A DNA stretch of 64,000 bases from assembly GCA_046290225.1 (NCBI GenBank), contig JBKAGE010000041.1, positions 53,148 through 117,147 of the forward strand, read 5' to 3'. A program made the position numbers and the translations under genes. The notes below the pieces were generated by a model, which was not told the DNA's origin, did no database searches, and saw only the letters and a list, made by a program, of their open reading frames with translations. Shown here piece after piece: positions 8,911 through 63,100 of this stretch (positions are counted from its first letter, which is position 1; every line of letters starts with the position of its first letter). The stretch comes from Bradymonadia bacterium (lineage in GTDB: Bacteria; Myxococcota_A; Bradymonadia; UBA7976; UBA1532).

Positions 8911-9687
8911 ATGAGCATTTTGAGCCATCGAGGCATGTGGGTGGCCCTTTTCGCCCTCGCTCTGTGTGTGCCTGCTGGAGCATCCGCTCAGGGCAAGGGT
9001 CGAGGGAAAGGCAAAGGCAATCCACACGCTCAGGCAGAAGGCGGCGATCACGGTAAGGGCAAAGGCCACGGGAAGCCTGATGGGAAGGGTCACGGCAAAC
9101 CTGAGGGCAAAGGGCACGGCAAGCCTGGAGGTCATCCAGGGAAAATGGGCGGGCCGCCCATGGGCAAGGGTAAGCCCGACGGGGTAGGCAAGCCGGATGG
9201 AAAGGGCCGTCCAGAAGGCAAGGGCAGGCCTGATGGAATGGGTCGCCCGGATGGCAAGGGTCGTCCGGAGGGCAAGGGGCCTGCTGGTGCTCCAGGGAAA
9301 ATGGGTGGGCCGCCTATGGGCAAGGGCAGGCCTGATGGGATGGGCAAGCCCGGTGGTATGGGCAAGCCTGGTGGGATGGGGCGGCCAGAAGGCAAAGGGC
9401 GCCCGGAAGGTAAGGGCAAGCCAGCCAAGGCTGCGAAGCGCGCCGCCCGCAAAGATCGGATCAAGAAGAACAAAGACAAGATCAAGGCCGCCAAGGGCAA
9501 GCAGAGCGCGTTGGCCAAGGAGCAACGCAAGCACCTGAAGCGCTTGGCCAACATCGACCGGCTTGCGGAGATGGGTGCGGAGAAGGGCAACCAGACCCTC
9601 GTCGAGAAGGCCAAGATGCTCCGTGAGAAAGAGATGAAGCGCCACGGGCGGAAGATGGATCAGCTCAACAAGAAGGCAGAGAAGTGA
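8911..9687 (+). CDS. Secreted, highly basic low-complexity Gly/Lys/Pro repeat protein
   Basis: Signal peptide ASA-Q; GKG(H/R)P(D/E) repeats; helical Lys-rich C-terminus; AAGGAG upstream. Confidence 0.7.
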   Translation: MSILSHRGMWVALFALALCVPAGASAQGKGRGKGKGNPHAQAEGGDHGKGKGHGKPDGKGHGKPEGKGHGKPGGHPGKMGGPPMGKGKPDGVGKPDGKGRPEGKGRPDGMGRPDGKGRPEGKGPAGAPGKMGGPPMGKGRPDGMGKPGGMGKPGGMGRPEGKGRPEGKGKPAKAAKRAARKDRIKKNKDKIKAAKGKQSALAKEQRKHLKRLANIDRLAEMGAEKGNQTLVEKAKMLREKEMKRHGRKMDQLNKKAEK

Positions 9688-12593: not shown

Positions 12594-13346
12594 TCAGGGA
12601 TCCTCGAGGAAGGGGTCCACGGGCGGGCGCACGCTCAGCTCGATGACGTGCTCAGCGTCGCCGCAACGGGGCGCGCCCTCCAAGCCGACCGCTATCGGGG
12701 TCGAGATGACGGGTGCATCTGCCCCCACCGTAGGCAGGGTGGGGGCGGTGATGGTCAGCTGCACTTGATCCTGGTTGGGATCGACCTCCAACAAGCGCGG
12801 CACCGACAACAGTGGGGTGTCACAGTCTCTCGGCCCATCACAGCAAGGCGTAAGCCACACCCGCAGCCCCTCGCTCACCCGGGCTGGTGATCCATCGACC
12901 ACCAGATCGAGGGTGACGTTCGCAGAGTCGAACCCGTCGGCGGTGAGAGGCCTCTCTGGTGCGGTGACGACCACCTCGTCGGGCAATCGAGCGCTGAGCA
13001 TCAACGAATCGTCCAGGGCGGTGTACGGCCCCGCTTTCACCTCCACCAGCACTGGGCCCGGGATACGCCCGAAGCGAATGGGCACTTGGACGAGGCCGTC
13101 TTCTGGTGTTGTCGTCTGATGCTCGGTGTCGTCGCCGATGGTGGCCCCCGTGACCTGAATCTCCACCTCGCGGCGGAAGAGGCGGGCGGCTTCGTCCAGC
13201 TGCACCTCGACGGTGGCGCGGCCCAGACCATCGGCGTATGCCTGAGCTGCGTCAGTGACGATAGAGATCTCGATCGCGCCCTCTTCGGGGGGATCGATGC
13301 ATGCACACAAGGCTAGGCCCAATGTGCAGATCCAGGGTGTCCGCAT
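12594..13346 (-). CDS. Lipoprotein with invasin/Big-like Ig repeats
   Basis: AAGGAG RBS overlaps the secretin stop; lipobox LCAC; YADGLGRATVEV and LTADGFDSANVTL motifs. Confidence 0.6.
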   Translation of the reverse strand: MRTPWICTLGLALCACIDPPEEGAIEISIVTDAAQAYADGLGRATVEVQLDEAARLFRREVEIQVTGATIGDDTEHQTTTPEDGLVQVPIRFGRIPGPVLVEVKAGPYTALDDSLMLSARLPDEVVVTAPERPLTADGFDSANVTLDLVVDGSPARVSEGLRVWLTPCCDGPRDCDTPLLSVPRLLEVDPNQDQVQLTITAPTLPTVGADAPVISTPIAVGLEGAPRCGDAEHVIELSVRPPVDPFLEDP

Positions 13347-13356
13347 CTTCATCTCC

Positions 13357-15114
13357 TTAGAAGTAGAGTGTCTCGAGGACATCGCGCAGGAATCGGCGGC
13401 CGCGGCGCCCGGCGGCGCTGGGCGTGTCGAGATCTTCTTCGGGCAAATCCACCCCGGTGAAGGTGAGATCGCCCCGGCGAAACTCTCGGTGGAGCGCGCT
13501 CCCCCGGGCGTTCGAGAAAGCTGTGAGGTTGTTCCGTGTGGGCTTTAAGAAGTCCGAGAAACGATCTTGAAGCTGCCGCGAGAGCGCCACCCCACCCTCC
13601 GAGAGCTGCCCTTTGTCGTTCAACTGCAGTGGTCGTCGGGGTGTGAGCAGGATGATCAGGGTGGCGTTCTGCTCCGACTCGCTCGTTGTGCTGAACAGGT
13701 ATTGCAAGATGGGGATGTCCCTCAGGATGGGCACCCCGCTTCGGCTGTTGGAGCGGCGCTTGGTGTTGCCTGCCGCGAGGGCGATGGTCTGCCCGAAGGC
13801 CAGCTCCGCGGTGACCGAGGTGCGGTTCTTCACCGTGGCCACTGCCTGCTCGAAGGTCCCTGGGGCTGCGGTGGGTAAAAAGGCGCCAAACTCGGTGCGC
13901 ACGCTGACGCGCAAGCGATCGTCTTCCAAGAAGGTGGGGCGGACGTTCAAGGTGATGCCCACCTCCTTGTTGTACGAGCTGCCCCCGAGCTGGCCTGGGG
14001 CGATGTAGGTCACCTCGCTGCCGATGAAGACCTCCGACTCTTCGTTGTCGTGGGCCACCACTGAGGGTCGGGCGACGATCTCGTTGTGACTGTCGCTGGC
14101 GTTGGCGATGTTCAGCGAATAGGTCACCTCGGGCATGCTGATGCTGACGCTGCTGGAGCCGCTCTCCTCGAAGGAGGTCACCGCACCTGTGGTGACGTCG
14201 CGGTTGGTGCTCCGGGAAGCGTCAAGCAGGGTGGAGCCAAATTGCACCTGCAGAGCCGACAACAGGTTCACGCCTCGCTGGCTGGAAGTAGAGTTCTCCT
14301 GTGACAACACCACGGCGTCGAAGACCACCATCTTTGCCGCTTCCGGTGTTTTGGGGTTCGAGTCCTCAGCGTGTGGTGACTCTTCTGTGTCCACAGGCAC
14401 GGCGTGTGAGGTGGCCTGCATCGCCTCATGTACAGTACGCCAGGTGTGTAGTCGTTGGGCGAGTGCGCCTGGAGCTGCACCGCCAGTATTGCGATAGATC
14501 TTCAGGTGGTGCGCCGCGGCGTCGTGATCACCCATCGCTGCAGAGACCAGCCCATGGGCGCGTTGGATCTGAGGCTCGGTCGATGCCGCGGGCGGCAGGC
14601 GCTCGAGGGCAACCTGAGCGGCTTTGGGATCGCCGGCATTGTAGGCGGCCACCACCAGGCCGTAGAGCGGCTCTGGTCGCTCGGGAGCAGAGCGTGCGGC
14701 CTGAGCGAAGGCCTCACGGGCTTCAGGCCCACGCCGTTGCCTCCACAACAGGCGCCCCAGCCGATATGCCGCAGCCCAGTGGTGTGGGTTGAACCGCAGC
14801 GCCAGCCGATAGCCCACTTCGGCGAGAGATGCCGACTTCTGAGCGCCCGCCTCGGCCCGCAGGTCGTAGACATAGGCGTTGAAGAAGTGCAAGTGAGCGT
14901 CTTGCGGCGCGGCCTGTAACCCAGCGTTGAAGGCCACACTGGCTGCGTCGAGATCCCCATCCCACAGCGCGCCCAGGCCATCGGCGAGGGCAGCGCGTGC
15001 CCCAGGGGCCGTCGGCGGTACGCGCTGCTGCAAATCGGATGGTAAACGCTCGATGCCCTGAGCTGCGCAGCTCATCAGCCAGAGGGCGAGCGAGAACGTG
15101 AGTGTGTATCTCAT
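13357..15114 (-). CDS. TPR-containing lipoprotein secretin (type II/III secretion outer-membrane pore family)
   Basis: Lipobox LMSC; TPR helices; ARPSVVAHDNEESEVFIG, KEVGITLNVRP, SGVPILRDIPILQYLFS, LIILLTPR. Confidence 0.88.
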   Translation of the reverse strand: MRYTLTFSLALWLMSCAAQGIERLPSDLQQRVPPTAPGARAALADGLGALWDGDLDAASVAFNAGLQAAPQDAHLHFFNAYVYDLRAEAGAQKSASLAEVGYRLALRFNPHHWAAAYRLGRLLWRQRRGPEAREAFAQAARSAPERPEPLYGLVVAAYNAGDPKAAQVALERLPPAASTEPQIQRAHGLVSAAMGDHDAAAHHLKIYRNTGGAAPGALAQRLHTWRTVHEAMQATSHAVPVDTEESPHAEDSNPKTPEAAKMVVFDAVVLSQENSTSSQRGVNLLSALQVQFGSTLLDASRSTNRDVTTGAVTSFEESGSSSVSISMPEVTYSLNIANASDSHNEIVARPSVVAHDNEESEVFIGSEVTYIAPGQLGGSSYNKEVGITLNVRPTFLEDDRLRVSVRTEFGAFLPTAAPGTFEQAVATVKNRTSVTAELAFGQTIALAAGNTKRRSNSRSGVPILRDIPILQYLFSTTSESEQNATLIILLTPRRPLQLNDKGQLSEGGVALSRQLQDRFSDFLKPTRNNLTAFSNARGSALHREFRRGDLTFTGVDLPEEDLDTPSAAGRRGRRFLRDVLETLYF

Positions 15115-15155
15115 GTGCACACCTGTTGGATCGTTTTTTGATGTGTTTTTGGGGC

Positions 15156-18100
15156 TCAGTGTGATTCGTCCCAACAGATGTTTGTATTGCATGGCACCCC
15201 TTTGCCGGGTGTGCAACGCATACAGTCACACCTGCCGTCGATATAGTCTCGAGCACTGATGCGCTCTTCTGTGCCAAACACCTGAACACGGCTCAGGTTC
15301 AATGGCACTCTGCCCCTCTGGTAGATCCAGACGTATCGAGTTGAGGAGATTGAACGGAAATACACGTTCTGAGAGAGATGGGCGAAGGGCTTGTCTTGGG
15401 GGCTGATGAGATCGAAGGCAGCCTCAGGCGTGGGTGCGCTGAGTTCTGTTGCATCAGAAGGTACGAAGGTCTGGGTGTCAGGGTTGTCGAAGTCGGCTTC
15501 CCCCTCCTCGGGCTGGCTCACAGTGGCGAGTAGCTGTGCAGTACAGGCCCCTCGGGGTGCGATGACGTGATAGTTCCCGGCGCCGAGTTGATGGCGGCGC
15601 TGATACTTCATGTCATCGCCGAAATAGACATCGTCTTCGCTGAGCGCTGCTTTGAGGTCGTCCTGGGTCGACAGCACGACCAGGGCACCTTCGAGGCCAC
15701 CATGGCGTTGCCCTGTGCCGCTGGCGTTCTGAATGACGACTGCGCTGACCTCATAGGGTTTGCCGAGATCCACGCGCCACCAGGCGCCGTCTCGATCCGG
15801 GCGAAAACCTACCTCTGGGCACTCGGCGAAGCGTTGGGTGGATTGTATACCACCGCTGCTGCGAGTCTTATTGCGGATATAGGGGGTGGCGAGGATGAGA
15901 TCCTGGCGCTCGCGACCGCCCCACTCCACGTGTGAGCCCTTGCAGCTGATGGGTTGGTTGGGGTTGCTCTCAAGGCGAGTGGGCGCGCTGGGTCCAGTTT
16001 TGAGTCGCCGTGCGCTCTTGAACCAGCTCGATACTTCATCGACCACCTTGTGTAAGAGTTTGGCGGGCTTATTGGGATCTGCGTAGAACATGCCCGAGGT
16101 CGTACCTGTCGGGAACTTGTCTTTGATGTCACTGAAAGGCTTGATCGCGTCTTTGGCCACGGCGCCGAAGACCTTGTTGTCGTACACCATGGAGTATCCG
16201 GTGTGCTTGAGCGCGCCGTGTACCTGGCTGCGGACGCCCTCAGGGTTGAGGTTGCCGAGGCTGGTCGAGCCATAGGACTTGAGCAGCTGTTCACGCACCT
16301 TGGGGAAATAACCACCAAGGCCCTTGGCCATATCGTGGGCGAGCTCTGCGCTGCTGGCGGCTACACCGAAGGCCACTTCTGCGCCTTCGGCGAAGGCCTC
16401 GACGATCGGCCCAAGGGGCCCCAGGCAGTCGAGTGTACTATTTGCATTCCACGAAACATTAAGGCCACTGCTCAGGTTGAGCGAGTTGGCCCTAAAGCGG
16501 ACCCCGATCGGGCGGTAGGGGCAGTTGGCGTCGAGCCTGAAGTCGATGTGGCGCTTGCTGAGCTCGATCTCCACGTCCTCTTCGAAACTGATCGGAGGGA
16601 TGCTCACCTCGGCCTTGATCGCCATCTTGCCTTGGGTGCTGTTGCCTTTCTTCACCGTGGACACCAGCAGCACGCCAGCAGCGTCGAGGTAGTCGGACCA
16701 CCCGCTCAGGTCCACGTCGGCGTAGATCCCCCGGGCCTGACGACCCTTCTTCTTCTGCCCTGAGTGCCCCGTCTGCCAGTACTCCACCGTGAGATCGCCC
16801 ACCGTCTTGCCGAGCACCACCCCAGTGCCGCGGGCCATCACACGCTTGCCTTTGACGCACTTGTTTGCGCTCTCTCGCACAGCCTTGGATGCCAGGATTT
16901 GCTGGTTCTTGCCGATGAAGAACCCCATCATCTGGCTCAGATCAGGGCGACCCGCCACGTCGAGGTTGGCCTCCGAGTCATAGCTCAGACCTTTCACAGA
17001 GACCGCATCCAGCGGCACATTGTTGAAGACGCCCGTCATGTCTTCGAATGTCGCGCCCAGCACGGCGCGGCCGATGACCTGAACGAGCCGGCGGTAGTCG
17101 TCGAGGCTGACCTCGGCGGCGTTGAAGGCGAAGGCGTTGTCCACCTTGCACGTCTTCAGGGTGCACTGCGCGTAGAGAAAGTAGTCCTTCGACTCGCCCT
17201 GGTACGTGACGGTGGTCTTCCTGGCCCAGGCCTTTAACACCTTCTTGACGCCCCGTGCCCCACCCTGAGTGCTGCGGATCTCCACCACAGGCTCGGTCAT
17301 GGTCAGGCCGTCGATGGTGAAGATGTTGCTCCACCGCTGACGGCTCAGCCGCACCCACCACGTCTTCCGCGGCCTGGGGTTGCAGTCATCTGCTGCGGCC
17401 TTGCCATGAGCGGCGTGCACGCGCACGCCGCAGTCTCCATTGCAGAATCCGATGCTCGTGAGGGCGCTCCTCAGATCGCCAGCGCCCAGAGACACGCGGC
17501 CGAAGACGTTCTGGCCGCCGACCATGGCGAGGGTTTGGCGCGTGTCCACTTGCTGGATGCGGGTCCGGATGGGAGTGGGGAGCCCGCTCATGGCGACGGC
17601 GCTGTGGGCGTTGTCGAAGGGCACCCACAGGAACACCGTGTGCTGCACCTTCACGTCTCCGAGCTCGTTGAGGTAGGGCACCTCGGTGAGCAGGGTAGAC
17701 AAGTCGAACTTCGCATCCTGAGGCAGCAAGGCGATGTTGGGCTGGTTCTTCTTTTGGCCGTCGAGCGTGGGCCAGTAGAGGACGAGCTGGAAGTTGGCGC
17801 CGAGCAGCCTGAGGTTCTTCTGGTACCACGTCACCCCAGCCTCAGTGCGCTTGTCCAGCGTGGCGTCGGCGAGATTGTCGAGGGCGTTGTGGACCAACCC
17901 TTGATTGTTCGAGCCCACAGCTTGGCGGGCCTGTGACACGATCTGCTTGTCCGGGTTGTTGCCAGTCGCTGGGGGATTGCCGCCCACAGGAGGGCTAGGT
18001 TGGCCCACTGAGGGGCTGCCGCCACCGTCGCCTGTAGGGAAGATGACCCCGGTGAGCGTCAGCCAGGAGGCCACCGTGCCGCCCTCGGCGAAGCTCAGCT

Positions 18101-19931
18101 GCCCATTGCCCTTGAGCTCGAGCCGGGCAGACTTGCTGTCGCTGTGGCTGCTGAAAGTGTGGGCGCTCGCGGGCCCGCTGCCGCGGGGCAAGGTGAGGAA
18201 GGTTGCTCTAGGCGCGTTGGTGATGAGGCCGGTGAGTACGGTGAAGGGCCCAACGTTGGTGGCTCGGGGCGGGCCAAAGCCGTCCGAGCCATAGGGGACA
18301 GCGCCGTTGAGGGCCATGGCGCTGCCTTTCCCCGTGGGGAACGCGATGCCCGCGAGGCTGATCCAGCCGCCGTGGTCGGGGGTGTGGAGGAAGACCTCAC
18401 CGTTGGGCTGGATGTCCACTCGGCCTTGTCCATTTTGGATGGCCACCTGAAACATCAGCCGCTCTGCGGGGCGCAAATGGTTGGGCAGAGTGGTGATACG
18501 GCCGCGACCGCGTCGGCCACGTACCATGCCGGACAGCACCACTAGATTACGGTGTTTGTACGCGCGCAAGTCTCCGTAATTCTGGCCGAAGTGGCTGAAC
18601 CCGGAGGCTGGGGTCAAGCGCTCGGCGTCACGCGTGGAAAAGGTGAGCCCGTCGAAGCTGATCCGGCCTCGGGTAATGGGGTAGTCCTCACGAGCGACGA
18701 TGTGTCCGTTGGGTCGTATCTCGAGCTGCACGATGTCAGCGCCTTGGGGCCGGCTGAAGATCTGTTTCTTGAGCGGACGCATCCCGAGGGGTAGCTGCGC
18801 GATGGCGCTCAGGCGTGTTGTACGGGTCATGCCGTGGAGCACGACGATCGGTGGATCGGCCGTGGCCGAAGGGGTCCCGTAGGGGCGCCCCCATCTTTTG
18901 TCCCCGTACAACAGCTCCAGTGGTTTGGTGCCTTCGACCACTGGGGCCTCACCGCCGGGCAGGAGCACGAGGCCAGAGACGGTGAGCCACGAACCCTCGA
19001 CGCCACCCTCGGAGAACTGCAGGCCACCCTCAGTAAATAGGTCGAGGCGGGCTGTTCGATCGCCGCTGTAGCCGTTGAGAATTCGCATACTGGCGGTGCG
19101 CAGCTCTCTGGGCAGCGTGAAGAGCGTCTCTTCGGAGTTGGCGTTGGTCACCATGCCCGTCAGCACGGCGAAGGGCCCTGCCATGAACACTCGAGGTGGG
19201 CCGAAGCCGACGTTACGGTACGGATTTACACCAGGCCCAAGGGGCAGCAACTTGCCCTGCTTCGTGGGGAACACCACCCCTGACAAGTTGACGCGCCCGC
19301 CGTGATCGGCGGTGTGCAAGTGCACCTCGCCGTTGATCTCCACATGCACCCGGAGCGGGCCATCGACGCCAGCAACCTGGAACATCAGGCGTTCTTTGGG
19401 TCGCAACTGAGCCGGCAGTGTCGTGATTCGGCCGCGGCCAGCAGGCGCGTGGACCAAGCCCATCAGCACCACGAGGTCTCGATGTTTGTAGGCTCTCAGA
19501 TCGCCATAGCCGTTCTCCCAATTGCGAAAGCCAGAGCCCAACGAGAGGCGCTCGGCCTCTCTCGTGGAGAAGGTGATCCCATCGAGGCTGACCCAGTTGC
19601 CCAAGGGGGCGCCGCCATCCTTCACCTTGATGTAGCCGGCGTTGTCCACGGCGATCTGGAGGGTGCCCTCGCCTTTGTTCTGGCTGAAGACAAGCGTGCG
19701 CGAAGGGCGCATGTTTCGAGGCAGGCGGGCGATTTTTCCGCGTTTGGTGGTGTGCACCACCCCATGCAGCACCACGATGGGATCATCGCGGGTCGCTGCA
19801 GGGGTGGCGTAGGGGCTGCCCCAGGCTCGAGCGCCGTTGAGCAGCTCCAGTGGCGTGGTCGTGTGGGCGTGCGCTTTGACGCCCCACAACACCCAAAATA
19901 TAACAACGAGATGACGAAGGCCGGTGTGCAC
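15156..19931 (-). CDS. Giant secreted protein: six phage tail-fibre/RBP-head-like repeats, unknown core, C-terminal F5/8C/fucolectin-like domain
   Basis: Signal peptide AHA; six ~100-aa repeats VVLxG...I/FxxLPxxxRP...(W)xSLxGxxF; WWRVDLGKPYEVSAVVIQN...RYVWI...VQVFG; GGAGGG RBS. Confidence 0.75.
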   Translation of the reverse strand: MHTGLRHLVVIFWVLWGVKAHAHTTTPLELLNGARAWGSPYATPAATRDDPIVVLHGVVHTTKRGKIARLPRNMRPSRTLVFSQNKGEGTLQIAVDNAGYIKVKDGGAPLGNWVSLDGITFSTREAERLSLGSGFRNWENGYGDLRAYKHRDLVVLMGLVHAPAGRGRITTLPAQLRPKERLMFQVAGVDGPLRVHVEINGEVHLHTADHGGRVNLSGVVFPTKQGKLLPLGPGVNPYRNVGFGPPRVFMAGPFAVLTGMVTNANSEETLFTLPRELRTASMRILNGYSGDRTARLDLFTEGGLQFSEGGVEGSWLTVSGLVLLPGGEAPVVEGTKPLELLYGDKRWGRPYGTPSATADPPIVVLHGMTRTTRLSAIAQLPLGMRPLKKQIFSRPQGADIVQLEIRPNGHIVAREDYPITRGRISFDGLTFSTRDAERLTPASGFSHFGQNYGDLRAYKHRNLVVLSGMVRGRRGRGRITTLPNHLRPAERLMFQVAIQNGQGRVDIQPNGEVFLHTPDHGGWISLAGIAFPTGKGSAMALNGAVPYGSDGFGPPRATNVGPFTVLTGLITNAPRATFLTLPRGSGPASAHTFSSHSDSKSARLELKGNGQLSFAEGGTVASWLTLTGVIFPTGDGGGSPSVGQPSPPVGGNPPATGNNPDKQIVSQARQAVGSNNQGLVHNALDNLADATLDKRTEAGVTWYQKNLRLLGANFQLVLYWPTLDGQKKNQPNIALLPQDAKFDLSTLLTEVPYLNELGDVKVQHTVFLWVPFDNAHSAVAMSGLPTPIRTRIQQVDTRQTLAMVGGQNVFGRVSLGAGDLRSALTSIGFCNGDCGVRVHAAHGKAAADDCNPRPRKTWWVRLSRQRWSNIFTIDGLTMTEPVVEIRSTQGGARGVKKVLKAWARKTTVTYQGESKDYFLYAQCTLKTCKVDNAFAFNAAEVSLDDYRRLVQVIGRAVLGATFEDMTGVFNNVPLDAVSVKGLSYDSEANLDVAGRPDLSQMMGFFIGKNQQILASKAVRESANKCVKGKRVMARGTGVVLGKTVGDLTVEYWQTGHSGQKKKGRQARGIYADVDLSGWSDYLDAAGVLLVSTVKKGNSTQGKMAIKAEVSIPPISFEEDVEIELSKRHIDFRLDANCPYRPIGVRFRANSLNLSSGLNVSWNANSTLDCLGPLGPIVEAFAEGAEVAFGVAASSAELAHDMAKGLGGYFPKVREQLLKSYGSTSLGNLNPEGVRSQVHGALKHTGYSMVYDNKVFGAVAKDAIKPFSDIKDKFPTGTTSGMFYADPNKPAKLLHKVVDEVSSWFKSARRLKTGPSAPTRLESNPNQPISCKGSHVEWGGRERQDLILATPYIRNKTRSSGGIQSTQRFAECPEVGFRPDRDGAWWRVDLGKPYEVSAVVIQNASGTGQRHGGLEGALVVLSTQDDLKAALSEDDVYFGDDMKYQRRHQLGAGNYHVIAPRGACTAQLLATVSQPEEGEADFDNPDTQTFVPSDATELSAPTPEAAFDLISPQDKPFAHLSQNVYFRSISSTRYVWIYQRGRVPLNLSRVQVFGTEERISARDYIDGRCDCMRCTPGKGVPCNTNICWDESH

Positions 19932-19966
19932 GTGCTTCCCTCCTGCGATGTGCAGAGGGGCGGTTC

Positions 19967-19983
19967 AGCACAGGCTATACCAG
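19967..19983 (-). promoter_or_regulatory. Putative sigma-54 (-24/-12) promoter
   Basis: Minus strand CTGGTATAGCCTGTGCT: GG-N10-GC with TGG and TGCT, 36 bp upstream of the GTG start. Confidence 0.6.
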
Positions 19984-40728: not shown

Positions 40729-40883
40729 GCGGAGCAGCCATGTCCATCTGTTGCGCGGTTGTCTGTTGACACCATGTAGTGGCCCTATGCCAATGTTTGA
40801 TGTCATACATGTAATTTGGTGTGGTTTGCTCTGGGGGTAACACATATAATCCTGCACATCACTCCATCTGTGCAGGGCTCGCC

Positions 40884-43800
40884 ATGCCATTCTCCACTCG
40901 CAAAACACTCTCCTGGCTCGCTGCGTTGGGCATCCTCGGCACCGCCGGGGCCGCCCATGCCGTACATGCTTTTCACACCTGCGTCCTCTTTGATGATGGG
41001 CGCGTGAAGTGCTGGGGCTACAATGCCAATGGTCAGCTCGGCCAGGGCAATACCACTGAGCGGGGCTCCGGCGCTGGCCAGATGGGTGACAGCATGCCCT
41101 TCGTGGATCTCGGCACCGGCCGCACGGCTGTGCAGCTCTCCACGAGCAAGCGCAACAGCTGCGCCATCCTCAACGATGGCGGGCTTAAGTGCTGGGGTGG
41201 CAACGATTACGGCATCTTCCCTTCGAGCAGCGGGTATCTCGGCAACCAGGCCGGTGAGATGGGCGACAACTTGCCCTACGTCAGCCTCGGCGCCGGTCGC
41301 ACCGTCTCCGATGTCAGCATGGGCGCCGATCATGCCTGCGTGATCCTCGACAATGGCGGAGTGAAATGCTGGGGCCGCAATGACTATGGTCAGCTGGGCC
41401 TCGGCGACACCAACAACCGCGGTGACAGCGCTGCGGAGATGGGCGACAGCCTGCCCTACGTCGATCTGGGCACCGGTCGCACCGCCACCGCCATCGCTGC
41501 GAGCCATCTGCACTCATGCGCAGTCCTCGACAATGGTCGGTTGAAGTGTTGGGGCTACAGTGCCAATGGCCAGCTCGGCCTCGGTGTCAACGAGTACCGC
41601 GGCAACCAGGCCGGTGAGATGGGCGACAACCTGCCCTATGTCGATCTGGGCACCGACGGCAACGGGGATCCCTTGCTGGTCCGCGACGTGAGCATCGGGT
41701 GGGGCCTCACCTGCGCCTTGATGAACAGCGGTGACGTGAAGTGCTGGGGCGCCAACAGCCATGGCAAGCAAGGCCGGGGCGACACCACCGAGCGGGGCAA
41801 CAACCCCGCCGATATGGGCAACAACCTGCCTGTCGTCGACCTGGGCACCGATGCTCAGGGCCAGCCCCACACCGCCACTCAGGTGCACGCCGACGTCAAC
41901 AACGTGTGCGTGATCCTGAACGATGGTCGGGTGAAGTGCTGGGGCTACAATGTCTACGGCAACCTCGGCCTCGGCGACACCAGCGCCCGGGGCGACAACG
42001 CCAACGAGATGGGCGACAGCCTGCCCTACACCGAGCTCGGCACCGGCCGCACCGCCGTGACTCTGGCCCGCGGGATCAACCACAGCTGCGCGCTGCTCGA
42101 CAACGGTGACGTGAAGTGCTGGGGCTACGATGGCAACGGTCGACTCGGCTATGGCACCAACGGATCACACCAGGGCAACGAGCCCAACGAGATGGGCGAC
42201 AACCTCGCCACCGTGAGCCTCGGCACGGGGCTCACCGCTGTGGCGCTGAGCGGCAGGGCTGCGCCGTGTGCTGATCCTGATGGTGACGGCCTGTGTGGCG
42301 ACGCCGACAACTGTCCGGCCACGGCAAACGCTGATCAAGCCGACGGCGACGCCGACGGTGTGGGTGATGCCTGTGATGTCTGCCCTGCTGATGGCACCAA
42401 CGATGCTGATGGTGATGGTGTCTGCCAGGACGTGGACAACTGCCCCACCGTCGCCAATGCCGATCAGGCGGACAACAACGGCGATGGTTACGGCGATGCC
42501 TGTGTGAGCACCAGCGCCGACATCGATCCCACCGCCACCCTCGGCGACAACGTGATCATCGGCGCCGACGCGGTCATCGGCAGCTACGCCGACATCGGCG
42601 ACGGCGCCACCATCAACGGCACCGTGGGCAACAGCGCGGTCATCGGCGCTGGCTCCGTGGTCCCTGCAGGGGTCACCGTGGGCAACGCTGCTCGTCTCGG
42701 TAGCAACGTGGGTCTCAGCGCTGGCTGCTCAGTGGAGGTGCTGGCGCGGCTGGGTGACAACATCACCGCTGGCGTCAATTGTGTCTTTGGCAGCAAGGCC
42801 GAGGTGGGCACCGGCAGCAGCTTTGGCGACAACACCAGCGTCGGCGTGCTGGCCATCGTCGGTGAGGGCGCGAGCTTTGCCGACGGCACCACCCTCGGCA
42901 ACAACAGCCAGGTGGGCGATGATGCCACCCTGCTCGCAGGCTCGAGCGTCGGCAGCAACGCCAGCGTGGGCCACACCCTGAACCTCGGCGCCAGCGCCAT
43001 CATCGAAGGCAACGCGGTGATCGGTGACGGAGCCACCGTCGGAGCGAACGGTGTGGTGCGCAGCTATGTCACCATTGGCAACAACCTGGATATGGGCGCA
43101 GGCGCTGAGTTTGCTTCTGGCGCCACCGCCGGTGATGACGCCATCATCGGTGCCAGCGCTGAGATCCGCGGATCTCTGGGCAACGGCGTCACCCTCAACG
43201 ACAACGTGTTCATCGGGAACCAGAGCGCCGTGGGCGACGATTGCACGCTGCGCACCAACGTCACCCTGGGCATCTTCGTCGATCTCGGAGCGCGCTGTGA
43301 CATCGGCGCCGACTCGGCCATCTACGATGGGGCCACGCTCGGTGCGGATGGCGCTGTGGGTGAGCGGGTCACCATCTTGTTCCGGTCGAGCATCGGTCTG
43401 CAGGCGAGCATCGCCGACGACGCCATCATCGATGAGCAGAACACCATCGGTGACGGCTTCACCCTGGGCGCCAACAGTCGTCTGTGGCCGCGGAGCACCT
43501 ACGGCAGCGACGTCAGCATCGGCGCCAATGTGCTCATCCGAGACGGTGCCGACATCAGCGATGAGGTCACCATCGAAGATGACGTGATCATCTTCCCCAG
43601 CACCACCATCGGGGAGCAGAGCACCATCCGTCAGGGGGTGGAGCTCGGTGTGGACACCTGTGAGACCCGCGTCTGTGGCCAGGTCACCATCGGCGGCTGC
43701 CGCGACGTGGGCGCCAACATCGCCGCCGCCGGCAGCGACGAGGGCGCGTGCGAGACCGGGCTGGTCATCGACGTCGACACTGGAGCGCGTGAGTGGGCGG

Positions 43801-44537
43801 ACAACACCTACGCCGCCAGCTGTGCTGACTACCGCAACCCGCCGGCACCTCCTTACACCTATGTCGACAACGTCGGCGACGGCATCTACACCATCGACCC
43901 CGACGGCCCCGGCGGAAACCCTGACTTCGAGGTGTACTGTGACATGACCACCGACGGCGGTGGCTGGACCTTGATCAGCAACCGTCGGGCGAACAACTCC
44001 AACCGCGAGTCCTGCGGCAGCAACCTGGCGCAATTCTTCACCAACGGGTGTGGATCGGTGGACGCCATCGGCGCTGGCAACAGCTATGCCCTCAACAGCA
44101 CTCAGCGGGGGAGTATCGAACACTACGAGTTGATGAACCTGCAGTATCTCAACGGCAGCCTCGACAGCGACGACGCATACATCATCGAGAAGGCCAATGG
44201 CTTCACCGATCTGTTCCCGAACTCCACAGCCTCGAACAACATCGCCCTGGTGCGGGTCTGTAACCTGGCGCGCTCCGTGTGCGATACGACCAGCGTGTTT
44301 TGGAAGTACATCGGCGACTTCTGGTTCCACAACTCATACTGCATGTCGGGCACTTCAGGGAACGCCACCTACCGAGGTAACTATGCTGTGTGCCATAACG
44401 GCGCAGCCAACAATGGCAACGCTGGCAGTTACCCGTCGAGCAGCTTCACGGGCAACCGCAGCGGTTACGATGAGACCAAGCTCTGGGGCCACGGCAATGG
44501 CTCTGTGCCCTATCAGGAGCGCTTGTTCATTCGCTGA
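40884..44537 (+). CDS. Secreted RCC1-repeat / TSP3 / hexapeptide beta-helix / fibrinogen-like protein
   Basis: Signal peptide AHA; seven (V/L)KCWG repeats; [12 protein letters not shown]; long [IV]Gxx[AV]x hexapeptide run; VYCDMTTDGGGWTLI. Confidence 0.85.
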   Translation: MPFSTRKTLSWLAALGILGTAGAAHAVHAFHTCVLFDDGRVKCWGYNANGQLGQGNTTERGSGAGQMGDSMPFVDLGTGRTAVQLSTSKRNSCAILNDGGLKCWGGNDYGIFPSSSGYLGNQAGEMGDNLPYVSLGAGRTVSDVSMGADHACVILDNGGVKCWGRNDYGQLGLGDTNNRGDSAAEMGDSLPYVDLGTGRTATAIAASHLHSCAVLDNGRLKCWGYSANGQLGLGVNEYRGNQAGEMGDNLPYVDLGTDGNGDPLLVRDVSIGWGLTCALMNSGDVKCWGANSHGKQGRGDTTERGNNPADMGNNLPVVDLGTDAQGQPHTATQVHADVNNVCVILNDGRVKCWGYNVYGNLGLGDTSARGDNANEMGDSLPYTELGTGRTAVTLARGINHSCALLDNGDVKCWGYDGNGRLGYGTNGSHQGNEPNEMGDNLATVSLGTGLTAVALSGRAAPCADPDGDGLCGDADNCPATANADQADGDADGVGDACDVCPADGTNDADGDGVCQDVDNCPTVANADQADNNGDGYGDACVSTSADIDPTATLGDNVIIGADAVIGSYADIGDGATINGTVGNSAVIGAGSVVPAGVTVGNAARLGSNVGLSAGCSVEVLARLGDNITAGVNCVFGSKAEVGTGSSFGDNTSVGVLAIVGEGASFADGTTLGNNSQVGDDATLLAGSSVGSNASVGHTLNLGASAIIEGNAVIGDGATVGANGVVRSYVTIGNNLDMGAGAEFASGATAGDDAIIGASAEIRGSLGNGVTLNDNVFIGNQSAVGDDCTLRTNVTLGIFVDLGARCDIGADSAIYDGATLGADGAVGERVTILFRSSIGLQASIADDAIIDEQNTIGDGFTLGANSRLWPRSTYGSDVSIGANVLIRDGADISDEVTIEDDVIIFPSTTIGEQSTIRQGVELGVDTCETRVCGQVTIGGCRDVGANIAAAGSDEGACETGLVIDVDTGAREWADNTYAASCADYRNPPAPPYTYVDNVGDGIYTIDPDGPGGNPDFEVYCDMTTDGGGWTLISNRRANNSNRESCGSNLAQFFTNGCGSVDAIGAGNSYALNSTQRGSIEHYELMNLQYLNGSLDSDDAYIIEKANGFTDLFPNSTASNNIALVRVCNLARSVCDTTSVFWKYIGDFWFHNSYCMSGTSGNATYRGNYAVCHNGAANNGNAGSYPSSSFTGNRSGYDETKLWGHGNGSVPYQERLFIR

Positions 44538-56316: not shown

Positions 56317-56471
56317 CAGAACCTCGCTCACCCCGAGAGGTGCGATGGATCGACAGTGTGAGCCACTCGAAAGGCATCGCCTGTTTGACCACGAGGGTCC
56401 GAGCTGCTCACATGCCCTCTCAATCTCTAGGGAAACCTCTGGGTAAACCTTTGGAAAGATGCATCGAACGT

Positions 56472-59400
56472 ATGCCAGCACAGAGTGTGATGCAAGGCGC
56501 CCAAACCCGTCGTAAATGGTGGATGTTGTGGGGCGTGCTCGTGGCGATGGCCCTCACCACCCACGCCCACGGTCGCCGGAGAGCGCGGCCTGATCCCATG
56601 GCCCAGGTGGCCCTGAAGTCGGGTTACATCGCCGCTGAAGCCCAGCGGCTCGTCTCGCAGGGGACTGAGCGAGGGGCAACACCTGCAGGGGCTGTGGACC
56701 TCATGCGGCTCGCTGCGCTGGGCCCGTGGCGGCCTCAGGGTGAAATCAGCGGGGCCTTGCATGCTGCGGCGAAGGATGCTCGACGGGGGCCGCTGGTGCG
56801 GGCCGTGGCCTGGTGGCTGTTGCGCGATCACGCGTTGCGCACCCTCGATCTCGACACGGTGGCCGAGGCCCGTGAGGCCCTGGGGCTGATCTCGGCCTTT
56901 CTGGTGCGCTCTGGGGAGGCGCCGGACCCTCTGGCGCCCATCAAAGCCTCCGAATGGCGTGTGTATCCAGAGCAGATGGGCCACGGCATGATCTGGCTCG
57001 ACGCGGTGATCCGCCCGGCGAGCGACAACGAGGCCACTCTGGTGACCGAGATCGAAGCCCCAGGCGGCGGTGCGATCCTGCGCCTGGGGTTCGATGATCA
57101 GGTGAAGGTCTGGCTCAATGGTGACCAGATTTACGAGGCGAAGGAGCCCCATCGGTCCTGGCTCGATCAGGTTGCGGTGCCCCTGGTGCTCAAAGCAGGC
57201 CGCAATCGCTTGATGTTTCAGGTGCGCCAGGATGAAGGGGCCTGGCGCCTTGTCGCTCGACTGACAGATCCGGAAGGTGTGCCCCTGAAAGGGCTGAAGG
57301 CGTCTACAGCCATAGAAGGCCCGGCGCCTGAGCCTCTGGTGGATGCTGAGCCGCCGGAGCAATACGCCCACATCTGGCGTGCACTCTGGGCCATCTCCGA
57401 ACTCGACGCGCCTCCAGCTCAGGGCTTGCGAGATCTGGCGGATTACGCCCGGGTGACCGGCTTGCCCAATCATGACCAGACTGAGCCCCAGGTGGCGGTG
57501 GAGGCCGCCTGGGAGGATGATCCGAGCCCTCGCAGCTTGCGGGCCTGGGTGCGCCTGCTCCCCGAGGCACGGCAGCAGGCGATCCGCACCACTCATTTAC
57601 CGGAGCAGCCGATCCTGCTTGCTGATGTGGTGGCCGATCTCTTCGATCGGCTCGAGGTGGCCGAGGGCCATTACTACGCCCGGCGCCATCGCATGGCGCT
57701 GGAGCAGGTGTCGGGGATTCTGGAGATCGACGAGCGGTTTGCCCCGGCGTGGCGTCTCAAGGCCCTCGTCATGGAAGACATCGGCCTGCCCAACACCGCG
57801 GTGCAGATTCTGGAAGGTGCCCGGTCGCGTTGCGGGGAGTTGCCGGGTTTGCTGAAGGCCTCGGCGTCGTCGCTGAAGGCGGCTGGCCGTCACGCAGAAG
57901 CCCTCGGCGCGCTCCAGAGCCTGATCGAGCGTAAGCTCGCTGGCCCTGATGATCACTATCGTCTCGCCAACACGTTGCACTTGCGCGGGCGCGCCGACGA
58001 AGCTGTGCAGATGCTCGACGGGGTGTCGGCGCTCAGACCGGAGCTGTGGTACCACGCCCTCGAGGCGGCTCAAATCCGCCTCACTCAGGGCCGACGGACC
58101 GAAGCGCTGGAGCGCCTGCTCACCCTTGATCGACAGATCCCCGAGGCGTCGCCGGTGGTGGAGCTGCTCGCCGAGGTCTATGCCCGCCTGGGCAAAGCAG
58201 AGGAGGCCCGGACCCAGCTGGCGCGTGCGCTGAAGCTGAGCCCGAGCGACGAGCTGTTGGAGCGCCGCCTCGACGCCCTCTCGGCTCGCGGCGGTCCCGA
58301 GCGCCTGGGCCCCGAGCTGACGAAGATCCTCGAAACCTCTGATCCGGAGGGGGCTTCGGCCCATGTGCTGTATCACCACGCTCGGACCGAGGTGCAGCCC
58401 ACCGGGCTGGCGAGCCGTCGACTGCGTCGCGTGGTGCGGCTGCTCGACGCCGAGGGCGCCCGGCAGTTCGCAGAGTGGTCTCTGGCCTACGTGCCCGGTC
58501 GGCAGCGCATCGAGATCCACACCGCGCGGCTGTACCGCGAAGGTCAGCCGCCGAGCTCACCTGCACGGGGCGATCGCGATCTCTCCGAGCCGGAGTATCG
58601 GCTCTACTATGATCTGCGGGCCGAGGTGCTCACCTTCGATCAGCCTCGACCGGGTGACGTCATCGAGGTGAGCTGGTCCATCACCGACATCGAAGGTGAT
58701 CCGGCCTTCCCCGGGTACTACGGTGAGCTGGCCTATCTGCAGGAGTACTTCCCTCGAGCGCGCTCGGTGGTGGACGTCGCTGGCCCCGCCGCCGACGCCC
58801 TCGCCATCGAGCTCGCGGATCGAGGGGTGTCCATCGAGCGCTCGGCCCTCGACGGGGGTGGCGCGCGCTTCACAGCAGAGCAAGTGCCGGCGGTGGCCTG
58901 GGAGGCCGGTATGCCCGGCGGATCGAGCCTGAGGGCCTTCGTGCACGTGAGCACGGCGAAGGGCTGGGGCGAGATCGACACCCGATACCGTACGCTGCTC
59001 CAAGATCGAGACAAACCCGATCGGGCCCTCAAGGCTCTGGCCAGAGAGTGGACCAGGGGGGTGGAGGGCGCCGAGGCGCAAATCGGTCGCCTCTATGCCG
59101 AGGTCGCCGCCCGCACCCGTTATGTGGGCCTCGAGCTGGGCATGCACAGCTTCCAGCCCGAGCAGCCGCGCATTACCCTGGCTCGGGGTTATGGCGACTG
59201 TAAGGACAAGGCCACGCTGCTCATCGCCCTGGCTCGGGCCCTGGGTCACGAGGCCCACCTGACGCTGGTGCGTACTCGATCCTCGGGTGCCCTGCCGCCC
59301 AAGCCTGCGAGCCTGGCCATCTTCAACCACGCCATCGTGTATCTGCCCGGGCTCGACCGATTCCTCGATCCCACAGTGGATCGCAACGACCCGTGGACGC

Positions 59401-60107
59401 TGCCGCCTTCGGATCAGGGGGCCGTGGCCTTCATCGTGGGCCGCGACGCCGAGCCGAGGCAAGTGCCCGTGCAGTCGTCAAAGCGCAACGTCACCGAGTG
59501 GGAGATGGTGATCACCCTCGACCGCCGCGGGGTGGGCCGAGGCCAATGGCGTTGGGAGACACGCGGTCATCCGGGCACCGTAGCCCGTCGGGCCCTGGAG
59601 CCCGAAGGCAGTCGGGCGGAGCTGGTGGCTCGAGCCCTTGGCGATCGCTTCCCGGGGGTGAAGATCCTCGACGCCGCGGTCGAAGGCATCAAACCTGCCT
59701 TCGATCCGGTGACAGCTTCGGGGCGTCTGACGCTCCCGCTGAGCCTGAACGACGGCAAGGTGGAGGTGCCCCTCGGTGGCGGTCCGTGGGGCCTGGTGTC
59801 GAGCTACGCTGAGGCCGCTCAGCGGGCGAATCCCCTTGAGCTGACCTTCAAGCACACGTGGCGTCAGCGCCTCGAGCTGCGGCTGCCTCAAGGCTGGTCG
59901 GCGAAGGCCGTGTCTCCGGTGAAGCTGGAGAGCCCGTTTGGCACCTTCGAGGCCACAGCAGAGGTCAGCCCAGGGGGCGTGGTGCTCGACGCCACCCTGC
60001 GCCTCGACGTGCGGCAGATCCCCGCAGATCAATACCCGGCGTTCCGGTCGTGGCTGAGTCGGATCGATCAGGCCCTGGCCCAGGTAGTGGAGGTGGGCGG
60101 TGCATAA
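56472..60107 (+). CDS. TPR + DUF3857 + transglutaminase-like protein (intact triad)
   Basis: Signal peptide; TPRs; PGDVIE, RYVGLE, GDCKDKATLL, FNHAI, LDPT. Confidence 0.85.
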   Translation: MPAQSVMQGAQTRRKWWMLWGVLVAMALTTHAHGRRRARPDPMAQVALKSGYIAAEAQRLVSQGTERGATPAGAVDLMRLAALGPWRPQGEISGALHAAAKDARRGPLVRAVAWWLLRDHALRTLDLDTVAEAREALGLISAFLVRSGEAPDPLAPIKASEWRVYPEQMGHGMIWLDAVIRPASDNEATLVTEIEAPGGGAILRLGFDDQVKVWLNGDQIYEAKEPHRSWLDQVAVPLVLKAGRNRLMFQVRQDEGAWRLVARLTDPEGVPLKGLKASTAIEGPAPEPLVDAEPPEQYAHIWRALWAISELDAPPAQGLRDLADYARVTGLPNHDQTEPQVAVEAAWEDDPSPRSLRAWVRLLPEARQQAIRTTHLPEQPILLADVVADLFDRLEVAEGHYYARRHRMALEQVSGILEIDERFAPAWRLKALVMEDIGLPNTAVQILEGARSRCGELPGLLKASASSLKAAGRHAEALGALQSLIERKLAGPDDHYRLANTLHLRGRADEAVQMLDGVSALRPELWYHALEAAQIRLTQGRRTEALERLLTLDRQIPEASPVVELLAEVYARLGKAEEARTQLARALKLSPSDELLERRLDALSARGGPERLGPELTKILETSDPEGASAHVLYHHARTEVQPTGLASRRLRRVVRLLDAEGARQFAEWSLAYVPGRQRIEIHTARLYREGQPPSSPARGDRDLSEPEYRLYYDLRAEVLTFDQPRPGDVIEVSWSITDIEGDPAFPGYYGELAYLQEYFPRARSVVDVAGPAADALAIELADRGVSIERSALDGGGARFTAEQVPAVAWEAGMPGGSSLRAFVHVSTAKGWGEIDTRYRTLLQDRDKPDRALKALAREWTRGVEGAEAQIGRLYAEVAARTRYVGLELGMHSFQPEQPRITLARGYGDCKDKATLLIALARALGHEAHLTLVRTRSSGALPPKPASLAIFNHAIVYLPGLDRFLDPTVDRNDPWTLPPSDQGAVAFIVGRDAEPRQVPVQSSKRNVTEWEMVITLDRRGVGRGQWRWETRGHPGTVARRALEPEGSRAELVARALGDRFPGVKILDAAVEGIKPAFDPVTASGRLTLPLSLNDGKVEVPLGGGPWGLVSSYAEAAQRANPLELTFKHTWRQRLELRLPQGWSAKAVSPVKLESPFGTFEATAEVSPGGVVLDATLRLDVRQIPADQYPAFRSWLSRIDQALAQVVEVGGA

Positions 60108-63100
60108 GCTCAAGTTCTATGTGATGGCCGGTCTCTCGATGTGGGCGCTGAGCAGCGCCACGGGGTGTGGGGGCGGCCCCAAGATTCAGCCGTTCTCGGA
60201 GCAGTACACTGAGGCGCAGGATGATCGAAAGCTCGATCCAGGCGCCGCGGGCTGGTGGCGCTACCTCTCGGGAGATCTCGAAGAGGCGAAGAAGGCCTTC
60301 GCTGCGGGTGAGGGCCCGCTTCAAATGCTCGGCAGGGCCCGGCTGGCCCTCGATGCCCTCGACTATCCTGGCGCCCTCGCCGCCAGCGAAGCTGTATTGA
60401 AGGGCGAGCGGAGCCAAGGGACCGGCAGTGCCGTACACGCGCTGGCAGGTCTGTGGGCCCGGCGCGCTCTGGCTCAGCTGCCTGCTGGCCATGAGAAGAA
60501 GAGCGTCGGTGGTATCACCTCTGTCCCCATCACTCGGGACACACTGCGCATCTCGTTCCTGCCCTTCCTCGATTTCCGGCGCCTCGCCAAAGACGGCGTA
60601 CTACTCGACGGCGACACTGTGCAGGCTCTGGGCAAGCGCTGGGCTCTCAAGAAGGGTCAAGCCCGGCCTGATCGAGACGGCATCGTGCTCAGTGAGATCG
60701 CCCTGGAGAAAGGCCCGGCCCACCTCGAGATCAGCGTCGACGGGCCCATGATGGCGTGGCGCGACGGCGCCCTCGTCGCCAGCGATCCGGCAGGCCGGTT
60801 CCCGGCGGGCGTGCGTCGATTGACCGCCCCCGGTAATGGTCCGTTGATCGTGGCCTGGGCGGCGCCGCGGGTGCCCGAGATCTGGCGCTGGCCCCACCCT
60901 GCACCACTGCCCACAGGCAGCTCCTGGCTGGATAAGGCCTTTGCCATCCAGCGGGCCCTCGTCGATGAAGATCCTGCAGAGGTGGCCCGCTTGCTCGAAG
61001 GCGCTCCTGACACCCCAGCCTTCGAAGGCTGGCGGGCGGAGGCCAGCGAGCAAGATCCATCGCGCTCGGGCCGGCGCCGCCGTGACGCCGCCCGCGTGCA
61101 CTGGCAGGCAGCGCGATCCCTCATGGGCCCTCGGGCAGACCTGGCCCTCGCCCGCCTCGACATTGAAGGGGGTGACCAGGCGGCGGCCTTGCGACGGGTG
61201 AAGTCGGTCATCAAAGCCGCGCCAGAGGCCCACAGGCCCCGGCGGTTGAAGTTCGAGCTGTTGCTGGCCCTCGGCGATCGGGCCGGCGCCCGGCAGGCTC
61301 TGCCAAAGGCGTTGGGTACCGCGCCCGATCCGTGCGCCCTGGTCGCTGATCGCGTCACCCTCGCCGAGCAGGAGGGCAGCCCCGAAGCCCGGTTGCCCCT
61401 CGTGGAGCAGCTCACACGCTGTGGCAAGCCCATGCAGGCGGTGAAGCAGTTGATGGCCCTCGAGCGCCATCAAGAAGCCCTGGCTCGCCTGGTGGCCCTC
61501 GCCGCGGAGAAACCCAAGGATGCAGGGATTCGTCGAGCCCGGGCCAGATGCCTCGTGGCCCTGGGTCGGCTCGAAGAAGCGGCCCGCCTCTACAAAGCGG
61601 GCAGCAGCGCCGGCGACGCCCTGGCCCTCGCTGATCTCGAAGTGCCCATCGAACTCTCTGGCGGCCCGTACCCCTCGGCGGTGTTCCCCCCGAGCGATTG
61701 GCCCGACACGGCGCTGTCAAATGCCCTCAAGGCGTTGATTCAGGCTCACCCCAAGGCTCGACAGGCCATCGAGATCGTCCGGGCACGCCCGGACTGGTCT
61801 CCCTTCGCCGAGATCGCCCTTGACACTGAGGCGGTCATCGCCGCCTACGAGAAATCGGTGCCACTTCCGGGTCCCGCCGTGCGGTTGCTCGATCACAGCG
61901 CCCTGCTGATCTTCAAGGACGGCAAGTCGTTGCGGTGGGTGCACGAGGTGTTGGCGATTCGTTCACGGGAGGCGGCGGAGTATTACGGTGAGCTGGGCTT
62001 GCCTGAAGGTTCGGAGCTGCTCTCGCTCTATACCCGGAAGGCTGACGGCCAGATTCTGTACGCCGAAGACACCCCCGAGAAGGACACCACCTCGCTGCCT
62101 GATCTCGACGAGGGTGATTATGTGGTGGCGGTGTACCTTGAGCCCGGCGACAACGGCTACATCTACAACCACGGCTTCCTCACCCCCCGCATGTACTTCC
62201 AGGGGGTGGACATGCCCATCTTCCTGCAGCGCTTCGAGGTGTTTCCCCCCACCGGGGGCAAGTTCGATGTGCAGCGCCTCGGCCTCGACGACGATCACCT
62301 CGGCCCCAAGGGCGAGCCCGCTCGTCTGGGCAAGATCAAGGGACTGCGCTTCGAAGCCCTCAACACGTTGCGCCTGCCCCAGGAAGGCAACGAGGTCCCT
62401 GCGGGTCTGTGGTTGCCTTCGATCCGGGTGGGCTGGAATGTGAAGCTCTCGGAAGATCTCGACTACCTGCGCGATCGGCTGCTCGCCCGCCGGCGCCGCA
62501 CCCTGGCCTTCGACAGTTGGGTGAAGGCGGCTCTCGAAGCACAAGAAGACGACGGATTCATGCCCCGCTTCCGCGCGCTGGTGCGCAAGGTCAGGGCCGA
62601 CGTCGCCGAGAGCACGGGCATGACCGATCACGACGTCGATCGCATGCGCATCACCGGGCGGGGCAACCGCGCAGCAGTGCTCTCCGCCGCCCTCGAAACC
62701 CTCGACGTACCTCACCGCGTGTTGCTGGCCCGGCCGCAGATTCACGTGCCCTCCGGGCCATTCCGACAGGTGGCGGACTTCGTGTACCCGCTCATCGAGG
62801 TGTTGCCTCACGCCAGCAGCGCCCTGAGTGAGACGGGCATCAAGTCACCGATCTGGCTCGATCCGGCCCCTGATCGTGCTCCGGTGGGCTTTGTGCCCTT
62901 CATTATGCTCGGCGGTGAGGCGCTCCAGGCCTGGCCGCCGGCTGTGAGCCGCGCACCGGTGTCGCTCCCGAAGACCCGCACCGTTGCCGACAGCCGGCGC
63001 CTGGACGTGAAGATGAAGTGGGCGGCCGACGGCAGCCTCACCGGCGAGGTGGTCGACGTGCTCGAGGGCCAGGAGGCCATCGTCATCGGTGAGTACTTCA

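Follow-up and report, generated by a model that had tools for sequence, protein, structure and literature searches.

Can a secretin serve as an outer-membrane pore without the machine to which secretins ordinarily belong? The literature presents secretins as the outermost channel of a machine driven by a motor, or as the channel through which phage are extruded, and the question is raised here by a cluster of three co-oriented genes that encode a giant protein, a TPR-containing secretin, and an Ig-like lipoprotein, within the 64-kb stretch of DNA that we analyzed (the window). The first-pass annotation had described the three genes as co-oriented, and the arrangement is confirmed, on the minus strand. 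We lean toward the view that the secretin is a self-piloting, motor-less gated outer-membrane pore for neighboring Sec-exported lectin-repeat proteins. We regard as evenly balanced the wider proposition that it defines a new class of secretion system, in which the product of one gene assembles itself into a pilotin-secretin pore and, needing no ATPase, pseudopilus, needle, or partner in the inner membrane, lets large lectin proteins delivered by Sec out through the outer membrane. The features of the locus are as follows.

15156 to 19931, minus strand: giant signal-peptide protein of 1591 aa, candidate cargo (ORF calls, domain searches)
18030 to 19859, minus strand: six repeats of ~100 aa, a duplicated triplet, in the giant protein (self-comparison; PHROG 3639 match)
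16452 to 17954, minus strand: core domain of the giant protein, residues ~660 to 1160 (predicted structure, profile search)
13357 to 15114, minus strand: lipoprotein TPR-secretin of 585 aa, without N0 to N3 (Pfam, predicted structure)
14407 to 15006, minus strand: TPR domain of the secretin, residues 37 to 236, predicted built-in pilotin (model, complex prediction)
13633 to 14331, minus strand: secretin barrel, residues 262 to 494, with invariant G365 and family motif 331 to 339 (alignment, model)
13360 to 13632, minus strand: conserved helical C-terminal tail of the secretin, S-domain-like by position (alignment, model)
12594 to 13346, minus strand: Ig-like (Big_1-type) lipoprotein of 250 aa, translationally coupled, not a conserved part (structure look-alikes)

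The giant gene, read from 19931 to 15156, begins with a GTG 7 nt after AGGAGG, and the N-terminus of its product is signal-peptide-like and ends in AHA, which bears out its earlier description as a 1591-aa signal-peptide protein. The ATG of the secretin, at 15114, lies 41 nt past the giant gene's stop. The lipoprotein starts at 13346, with an AGGAG ribosome site that overlaps the secretin TAA, and it has Big_1 domains as structural look-alikes (score 0.94, TM 0.57); both the Ig-like fold and the overlapping ribosome site proposed for it are supported. Its suggested role as pilotin or anchor is not supported: no homolog was found in the protein collection, in 30 genomes of the same order, or in the neighbor loci, and it is not a conserved part of the system. 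Two-component genes surround the cluster in a Pfam scan of the window's ORFs. Neither tblastn with nine queries from the same genome nor a Pfam scan of the 33 other ORFs revealed a T2SS, T4P, or Tad motor or platform gene in the window, the sole T2SSE match being below cut-off and within a sigma-54 regulator; for these three systems, the earlier statement that no ATPase, pilin, or platform gene is recognizable in the window is borne out. Elsewhere in the source genome there are T2SS (contig C34), type IV pilus (C46), and Tad (C57) loci, assignments that are a reading of matches and gene order; each has its own secretin, that of the pilus being a fragment at the end of contig C73. The TPR-secretin was not found in the 30 same-order genomes or among the best three candidates scored in each of 400 same-phylum genomes, and the giant protein's core was likewise not found in the former; these absences suggest patchy acquisition of the locus, although its GC content is like that of the genome. 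No plasmid match was obtained, and no RNA holder is listed.

The 585-aa protein, its length as called in the public collection, is a true secretin: it matches PF00263 above the cut-off (E 1e-26), and Foldseek pairs it with solved secretins down to E 7e-15. The predicted structure (mean pLDDT 81, pTM 0.61) consists of TPR helices from 37 to 236, a disordered linker, a barrel from residue 262, and a helical tail. Pfam finds TPRs and no Secretin_N, in agreement with the first reading of a secretin in which TPRs replace the N domains. Across 173 non-redundant members the linker is 23 to 198 aa long, rich in Ala, Pro, Gly, and Ser, and of low complexity, with no match to the N-regions of the source genome's GspD or RcpA; given this length and low complexity, no N domain is hidden there, and N3 is absent ahead of the barrel by Pfam, model, and linker comparison alike. 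The barrel and gate region keeps G281, L288, G365, G386, P462, P468, and R493 in all or nearly all of the 173 members, and the counterpart of the invariant G365 in V. cholerae GspD is G453, the gate-hinge residue. A lipobox (LMSC) occupies residues 13 to 16, and its cysteine is present in 89 of the 100 rows of the family alignment (100 of the 120 relatives listed), which makes the protein a probable liposecretin with predicted lipidation. N3 has been called universal among secretins (PMC12114550), RcpA being a known exception.

Scoring of 8000 candidates yielded 283 relatives of the TPR-secretin. In an unrooted tree of the barrel domain, 42 of 43 family rows fall on one branch (support 100/100, length 2.32) apart from 32 canonical secretins of the same genomes, among which T3SS and phage secretins are not confirmed; the stray row is a partial domain, 39% filled, and without it the family label needs a single change, with support 100. 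To judge from this tree, the family is a long branch of its own, apart from T2SS, pilus, and Tad secretins; the first-pass annotation had allowed that the protein might group with those of Tad or T2SS, and it does not. The family is widespread, and among the carriers that have names are Rhodospirillales, sphingomonads, Betaproteobacteria, Desulfobacterota, a verrucomicrobium, and Myxococcales. Most are marine Alphaproteobacteria, which leaves the idea of a prey-binding or predatory cargo unsupported; the nearest named relatives of both the giant protein and the secretin are Myxococcales records. We found no description of the family in the openly accessible papers searched. Some genomes hold three or four copies of the family secretin, and at loci L016, L019, and L143 two stand in tandem. 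The lipobox, N79, and an aromatic C-terminal tip are missing together in 15 of 173 rows, often among small signal-peptide proteins; the sphingomonad-type members (L012, L013, L020, L021, L033) lack all three. A 969-aa frame at L095:880-3789 joins an ATPase-like N-terminal part to a secretin barrel and is possibly an assembly chimera.

The absence of motor genes extends beyond the window. The nine T2SS, pilus, and Tad queries, which retrieved their paralogs in the source genome as a positive control, found no motor or platform gene at E 1e-5 in any of 159 loci (the window and 158 others, with flanks of up to 10 kb, many shorter), the best match having E 9e-4. On the scale of genomes, 17 of 50 carriers (representing 50 of 78 loci; many are MAGs, and completeness is not given) have no T2SSF match and 33 have a platform gene, and every PF00263 match in the 17 belongs to the TPR-secretin family. 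One carrier, G447, is the complete chromosome of Thalassospira lucentensis Mv1, whose single secretin is of this family and in which we found no T2SSE, T2SSF, Secretin_N, Zot, or prepilin peptidase and no hrcV above cut-off. Among five of the 17 T2SSF-less genomes, T2SSE and prepilin peptidase occur in one of five each, and Secretin_N, Zot, and hrcV above cut-off in none; the sub-cut-off hrcV matches are read as flagellar FlhA. Machinery elsewhere in the genome, which the first-pass annotation had named as a competing account of the secretin, is not needed in these carriers. The TPR-secretin itself scores 72 bits against a cut-off of 351 for TIGR02517 (T2SS GspD) and 48 bits against 238 for TIGR02516 (SctC type), and has no match to DUF560, the T11SS barrel. 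By the tests of membership applied, it is thus a true secretin that belongs neither to T2SS, pili, or Tad nor to T3SS, phage extrusion, or T11SS.

The giant protein runs from its signal-peptide-like start through six repeats, an unannotated beta core, and a helical stretch to a weak F5/8-type C match. Repeat pairs 1/4, 2/5, and 3/6 share 47, 61, and 43 identical residues, a duplicated triplet, and the repeats resemble C-terminal portions of minor tail proteins from phages (PHROG 3639, E 4e-15) rather than the phage-head proteins with which they had been compared; by sequence they have no solved relative. The lectin label given to the protein survives in part, in that an F5/8-type C match and lectin relatives favor it and the match itself lies below cut-off. 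The core domain is predicted with confidence and is mostly beta. It has no Pfam match and no fold match in the PDB or viral-structure libraries, an absence that does not amount to a new fold, and comparison with bridge-like lipid transfer (beta-groove) proteins gave a best Z of 6.7 with high rmsd and no Foldseek match at E 0.001. A word-index search with the core retrieved only itself; a profile search found the domain in 220 representatives, which usually carry signal peptides and often tectonin, ricin-type, or F5/8 domains.

In the closest relatives for which DNA is available (41 to 42% identity; L006/L084, L085, L086, L087), a homolog of the giant protein lies one or two genes upstream of the secretin. 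The core profile is found in 15 of the 251 genomes of T. lucentensis Mv1's order; 11 of these also carry the secretin, 9 within about 10 kb, and three of the eight linked cases mapped are not co-oriented. In two carrier genomes the core protein is unlinked to the secretin, no family secretin was found in the other four of the 15, whose completeness is not given, and, indirectly, 4 of 24 core clusters looked up could be matched to listed secretin records. Tectonin (Pfam) offers a less circular comparison, one in which related genomes are not independent: it occurs in 31 of 62 carriers as against 6 of 189 non-carriers in the same 251 genomes, and within 10 kb of the secretin in 27 of 37. Among 104 non-redundant loci, 61 have 3 kb on both sides; 32 of the 61 have lectin/core neighbors, 3 lectin and pentapeptide, 12 pentapeptide only (often with TAXI neighbors), and 14 neither, a split that is descriptive because the profiles were built from the same loci. 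Lectin/core neighbors are co-oriented with the secretin in 74 of 74 cases, and none of the 74 has a barrel-type aromatic C-terminal signature. A simple signal-peptide rule, which also fires on membrane anchors, is passed by 69 of the 74 as against 2 of 32 AraC and 14 of 31 two-component proteins. No single domain is common to the neighbors at all loci. The survey of gene neighborhoods proposed earlier thus finds homologous secretins beside large cargo-type genes, and the link between secretin and giant protein is conserved through the core domain and related signal-peptide lectin proteins.

The first-pass annotation supposed that the TPR arm captures cargo. That supposition is weakened by the predicted complex, which places the conserved TPR face on the secretin's own barrel and tail. 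A two-chain prediction of the TPR domain (17 to 240) with the secretin and its tail (258 to 585) scored 0.61 as against 0.00 for the best of three controls, by a mark that 116 of 157 solved pairs and 2 of 215 mismatched pairs reach; the runs share at least 51% of their contacts, with partner pLDDT of at least 83. The predicted interface sets N63, L66, L97, G101, Y158, and R221 against the family motif 331 to 339 and residues 543 to 552 of the tail. It is conserved above the rest (0.59 versus 0.45; 0.67 versus 0.48), a test that shares its alignment with the complex model and in which a pass may reflect likeness to the solved RcpA-TadD pair. The TPR fold matches PilF/PilW at a Z of about 16, a value that other TPR proteins equal. 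Noisy coupling analysis (279 rows, about 160 effective) puts tail-barrel pairs at three of the top seven places and no TPR-tail pairs above noise, and two conserved residues of the TPR domain, N79 and Y83, are not part of the self-interface that is predicted with confidence. RcpA of P. aeruginosa, which has no N3, needs the TPR lipoprotein TadD, bound to the C-terminal residues of RcpA (PMC10499894); the TadD ortholog CpaO is reported as dispensable in Caulobacter (PMC13170226). Given the predicted contact of the TPR face with its own barrel and tail, and given RcpA-TadD as a precedent, a fused pilotin fits better than a cargo arm, and we predict from the models that the TPR domain is a pilotin fused to its own secretin.

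The mechanism that we favor is motor-less. The lipid-anchored TPR domain would clamp the outside of its own or a neighboring barrel and the tail, as TadD does on N3-less RcpA, and the secretin ring would assemble and be gated. The partner protein would pass through Sec into the periplasm and then cross the pore one domain at a time with no ATPase to drive it, perhaps by diffusion, while folding or the binding of glycans on the outside acts as a ratchet; once outside, it might be released or kept at the surface as an adhesin. ATP-free passage with an outside ratchet is something we infer from the likeness to export by CsgG, two-partner systems, and T11SS. Several observations stand against the model. 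Neither an energy source nor a substrate signal was found; the source genome's T2SS could export the giant protein; of the 61 well-flanked loci noted above, 14 have no lectin/core or pentapeptide neighbors and 12 have pentapeptide neighbors only; and in some genomes the core protein occurs without a family secretin found, unlinked to it, or in another orientation. N3, moreover, is reported to be necessary for pore assembly of bacterial GspD (PMC8134430).

Passage in the opposite direction is the alternative that we take most seriously, and we hold it to be unlikely: the secretin would be a gated inlet for glycans or large solutes, with the lectin, TAXI, and pentapeptide neighbors as periplasmic receptors or a plug. 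Passive influx needs no motor; the TAXI-type binding proteins beside family members are signal-like in 20 of 22 cases and co-oriented in 22 of 22; and many members have MFS transporters, a TonB-type receptor (by eye), or galactosidases at their side. However, the loci have no transporter in common, and the largest neighbor class is that of lectin proteins with several domains and phage-tail-like repeats, which can reach several thousand residues, an architecture that we judge more typical of surface adhesins. Rather improbable, in our estimate, is a dedicated exporter whose TPR arm receives the cargo, in the way suggested for T11SS/Slam, while the Ig lipoprotein serves as pilotin or anchor. 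T11SS proteins do have TPR domains and co-located cargo (PMC8406197), and N79 and Y83 are off the confidently predicted self-interface; yet the model places the most conserved face of the TPR domain on the secretin, the neighbors have no common domain, and the lipoprotein has no homolog.

The two remaining readings are both very unlikely. According to one, there is no conduit at all, and the protein forms a ring or scaffold that anchors its partner or stiffens the envelope; the lack of an N3, a motor, or a shared substrate signal is consistent with this, whereas retention of the barrel and gate residues in all or nearly all of the 173 members counts against it. According to the other, which we rate the least probable of all, the secretin is a spare for a T2SS, pilus, or Tad machine whose genes lie elsewhere, and its neighbor is an ordinary substrate. 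In its favor, gspD can be found away from the other genes of its system (PMC6668835), and the source genome, like 33 of the 50 carriers, holds a platform gene. But N0, which docks GspC (PMC8134430), is absent, the source genome's three systems have secretins of their own, and the reading is already contradicted for motor-less genomes, by the 17 carriers without a platform and by the Mv1 chromosome, which has no ATPase, platform, or prepilin peptidase.

Self-piloting, motor-less export would have partial precedents. HxcQ and TcpC are liposecretins, with their own lipid anchor and no known separate pilotin. Two-partner secretion is a two-step export through a dedicated outer-membrane pore, and like type VIII secretion it is not known to use an inner-membrane motor. 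Export as proposed here would share its two steps and dedicated pore with the CsgG system as well (PMC13721041), but the pore families are unrelated, and the partners are lectin-repeat proteins, not curli or hemagglutinin-domain proteins. In type XI secretion (Slam/DUF560; PMC8406197), likewise, a single outer-membrane protein with TPRs is enough to export cargo that arrives through Sec and is encoded in the vicinity, as we propose here; the present pore, in contrast, is not DUF560, its TPR domain is predicted to bind the pore itself, and no TbpB-type barrel cargo was seen among the scanned neighbors. BfpB also has its own lipid anchor and no separate pilotin, but it works in a pilus machine and has retained both N0 and N3, and no TPR domain is described for it (PMC12114550). 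The closest parallel in structure is the P. aeruginosa Tad pair (PDB 8odn; PMC10499894), likewise a secretin without N3 carrying a lipid-anchored TPR protein on its barrel and C-terminal region; here, however, the two are joined in a single chain that has no VirB9-like N domain, the neighborhood holds no tad genes, and the barrel branches separately from Tad secretins. The mitochondrial GspD of some protists also has no N domains and still oligomerizes and inserts into membranes; it is further truncated and accompanied by separate N-domain proteins and homologs of GspE, GspF, and GspG (PMC8134430), whereas Secretin_N is present in none of the five motor-less carrier genomes examined.

Mv1, with a family member as the sole secretin in a complete motor-less genome, is a culturable strain in which to ask whether a secretin gate opens without a piston, and the same family poses the question of the minimal unit for secretin assembly and targeting. 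If our proposal is correct, a wide pore that needs one gene and admits large proteins from the periplasm would be useful in the engineering of export and display.

A number of other genes deserve mention. In three relatives a FAD-dependent monooxygenase-like gene lies between the giant homolog and the secretin (L006:8698-9822, L085:3433-4587, L087:2597-3715). Core-domain proteins of 2200 to 4400 aa stand upstream of the secretin at L200, L201, L203, and L204 (genomes G567, G551, G591, and G612); they contain several copies of the core's N-terminal part, and relatives have C-terminal ricin-type domains. At L196:7563-16006 a lipoprotein, a core-domain protein of ~1000 aa, and a small lipoprotein are duplicated in tandem, with no secretin in the 20 kb fetched. 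On contig C39 of the source genome (78574 to 81132, minus strand), which has no secretin match, an 852-aa signal-peptide protein with collagen-like and Cys-rich repeats bears three copies of the giant protein's phage-tail-like repeat. The window itself encodes, all on the plus strand, a 258-aa signal-peptide protein with Gly-Lys-Pro low-complexity repeats, a basic helical end, and no Pfam match (8911 to 9687); a 1238-aa protein with RCC1-like, thrombospondin type 3, hexapeptide, and fibrinogen-C matches (40821 to 44537); and two adjoining large TPR proteins (56340 to 63618), the first of which has DUF3857 and transglutaminase-like domains.
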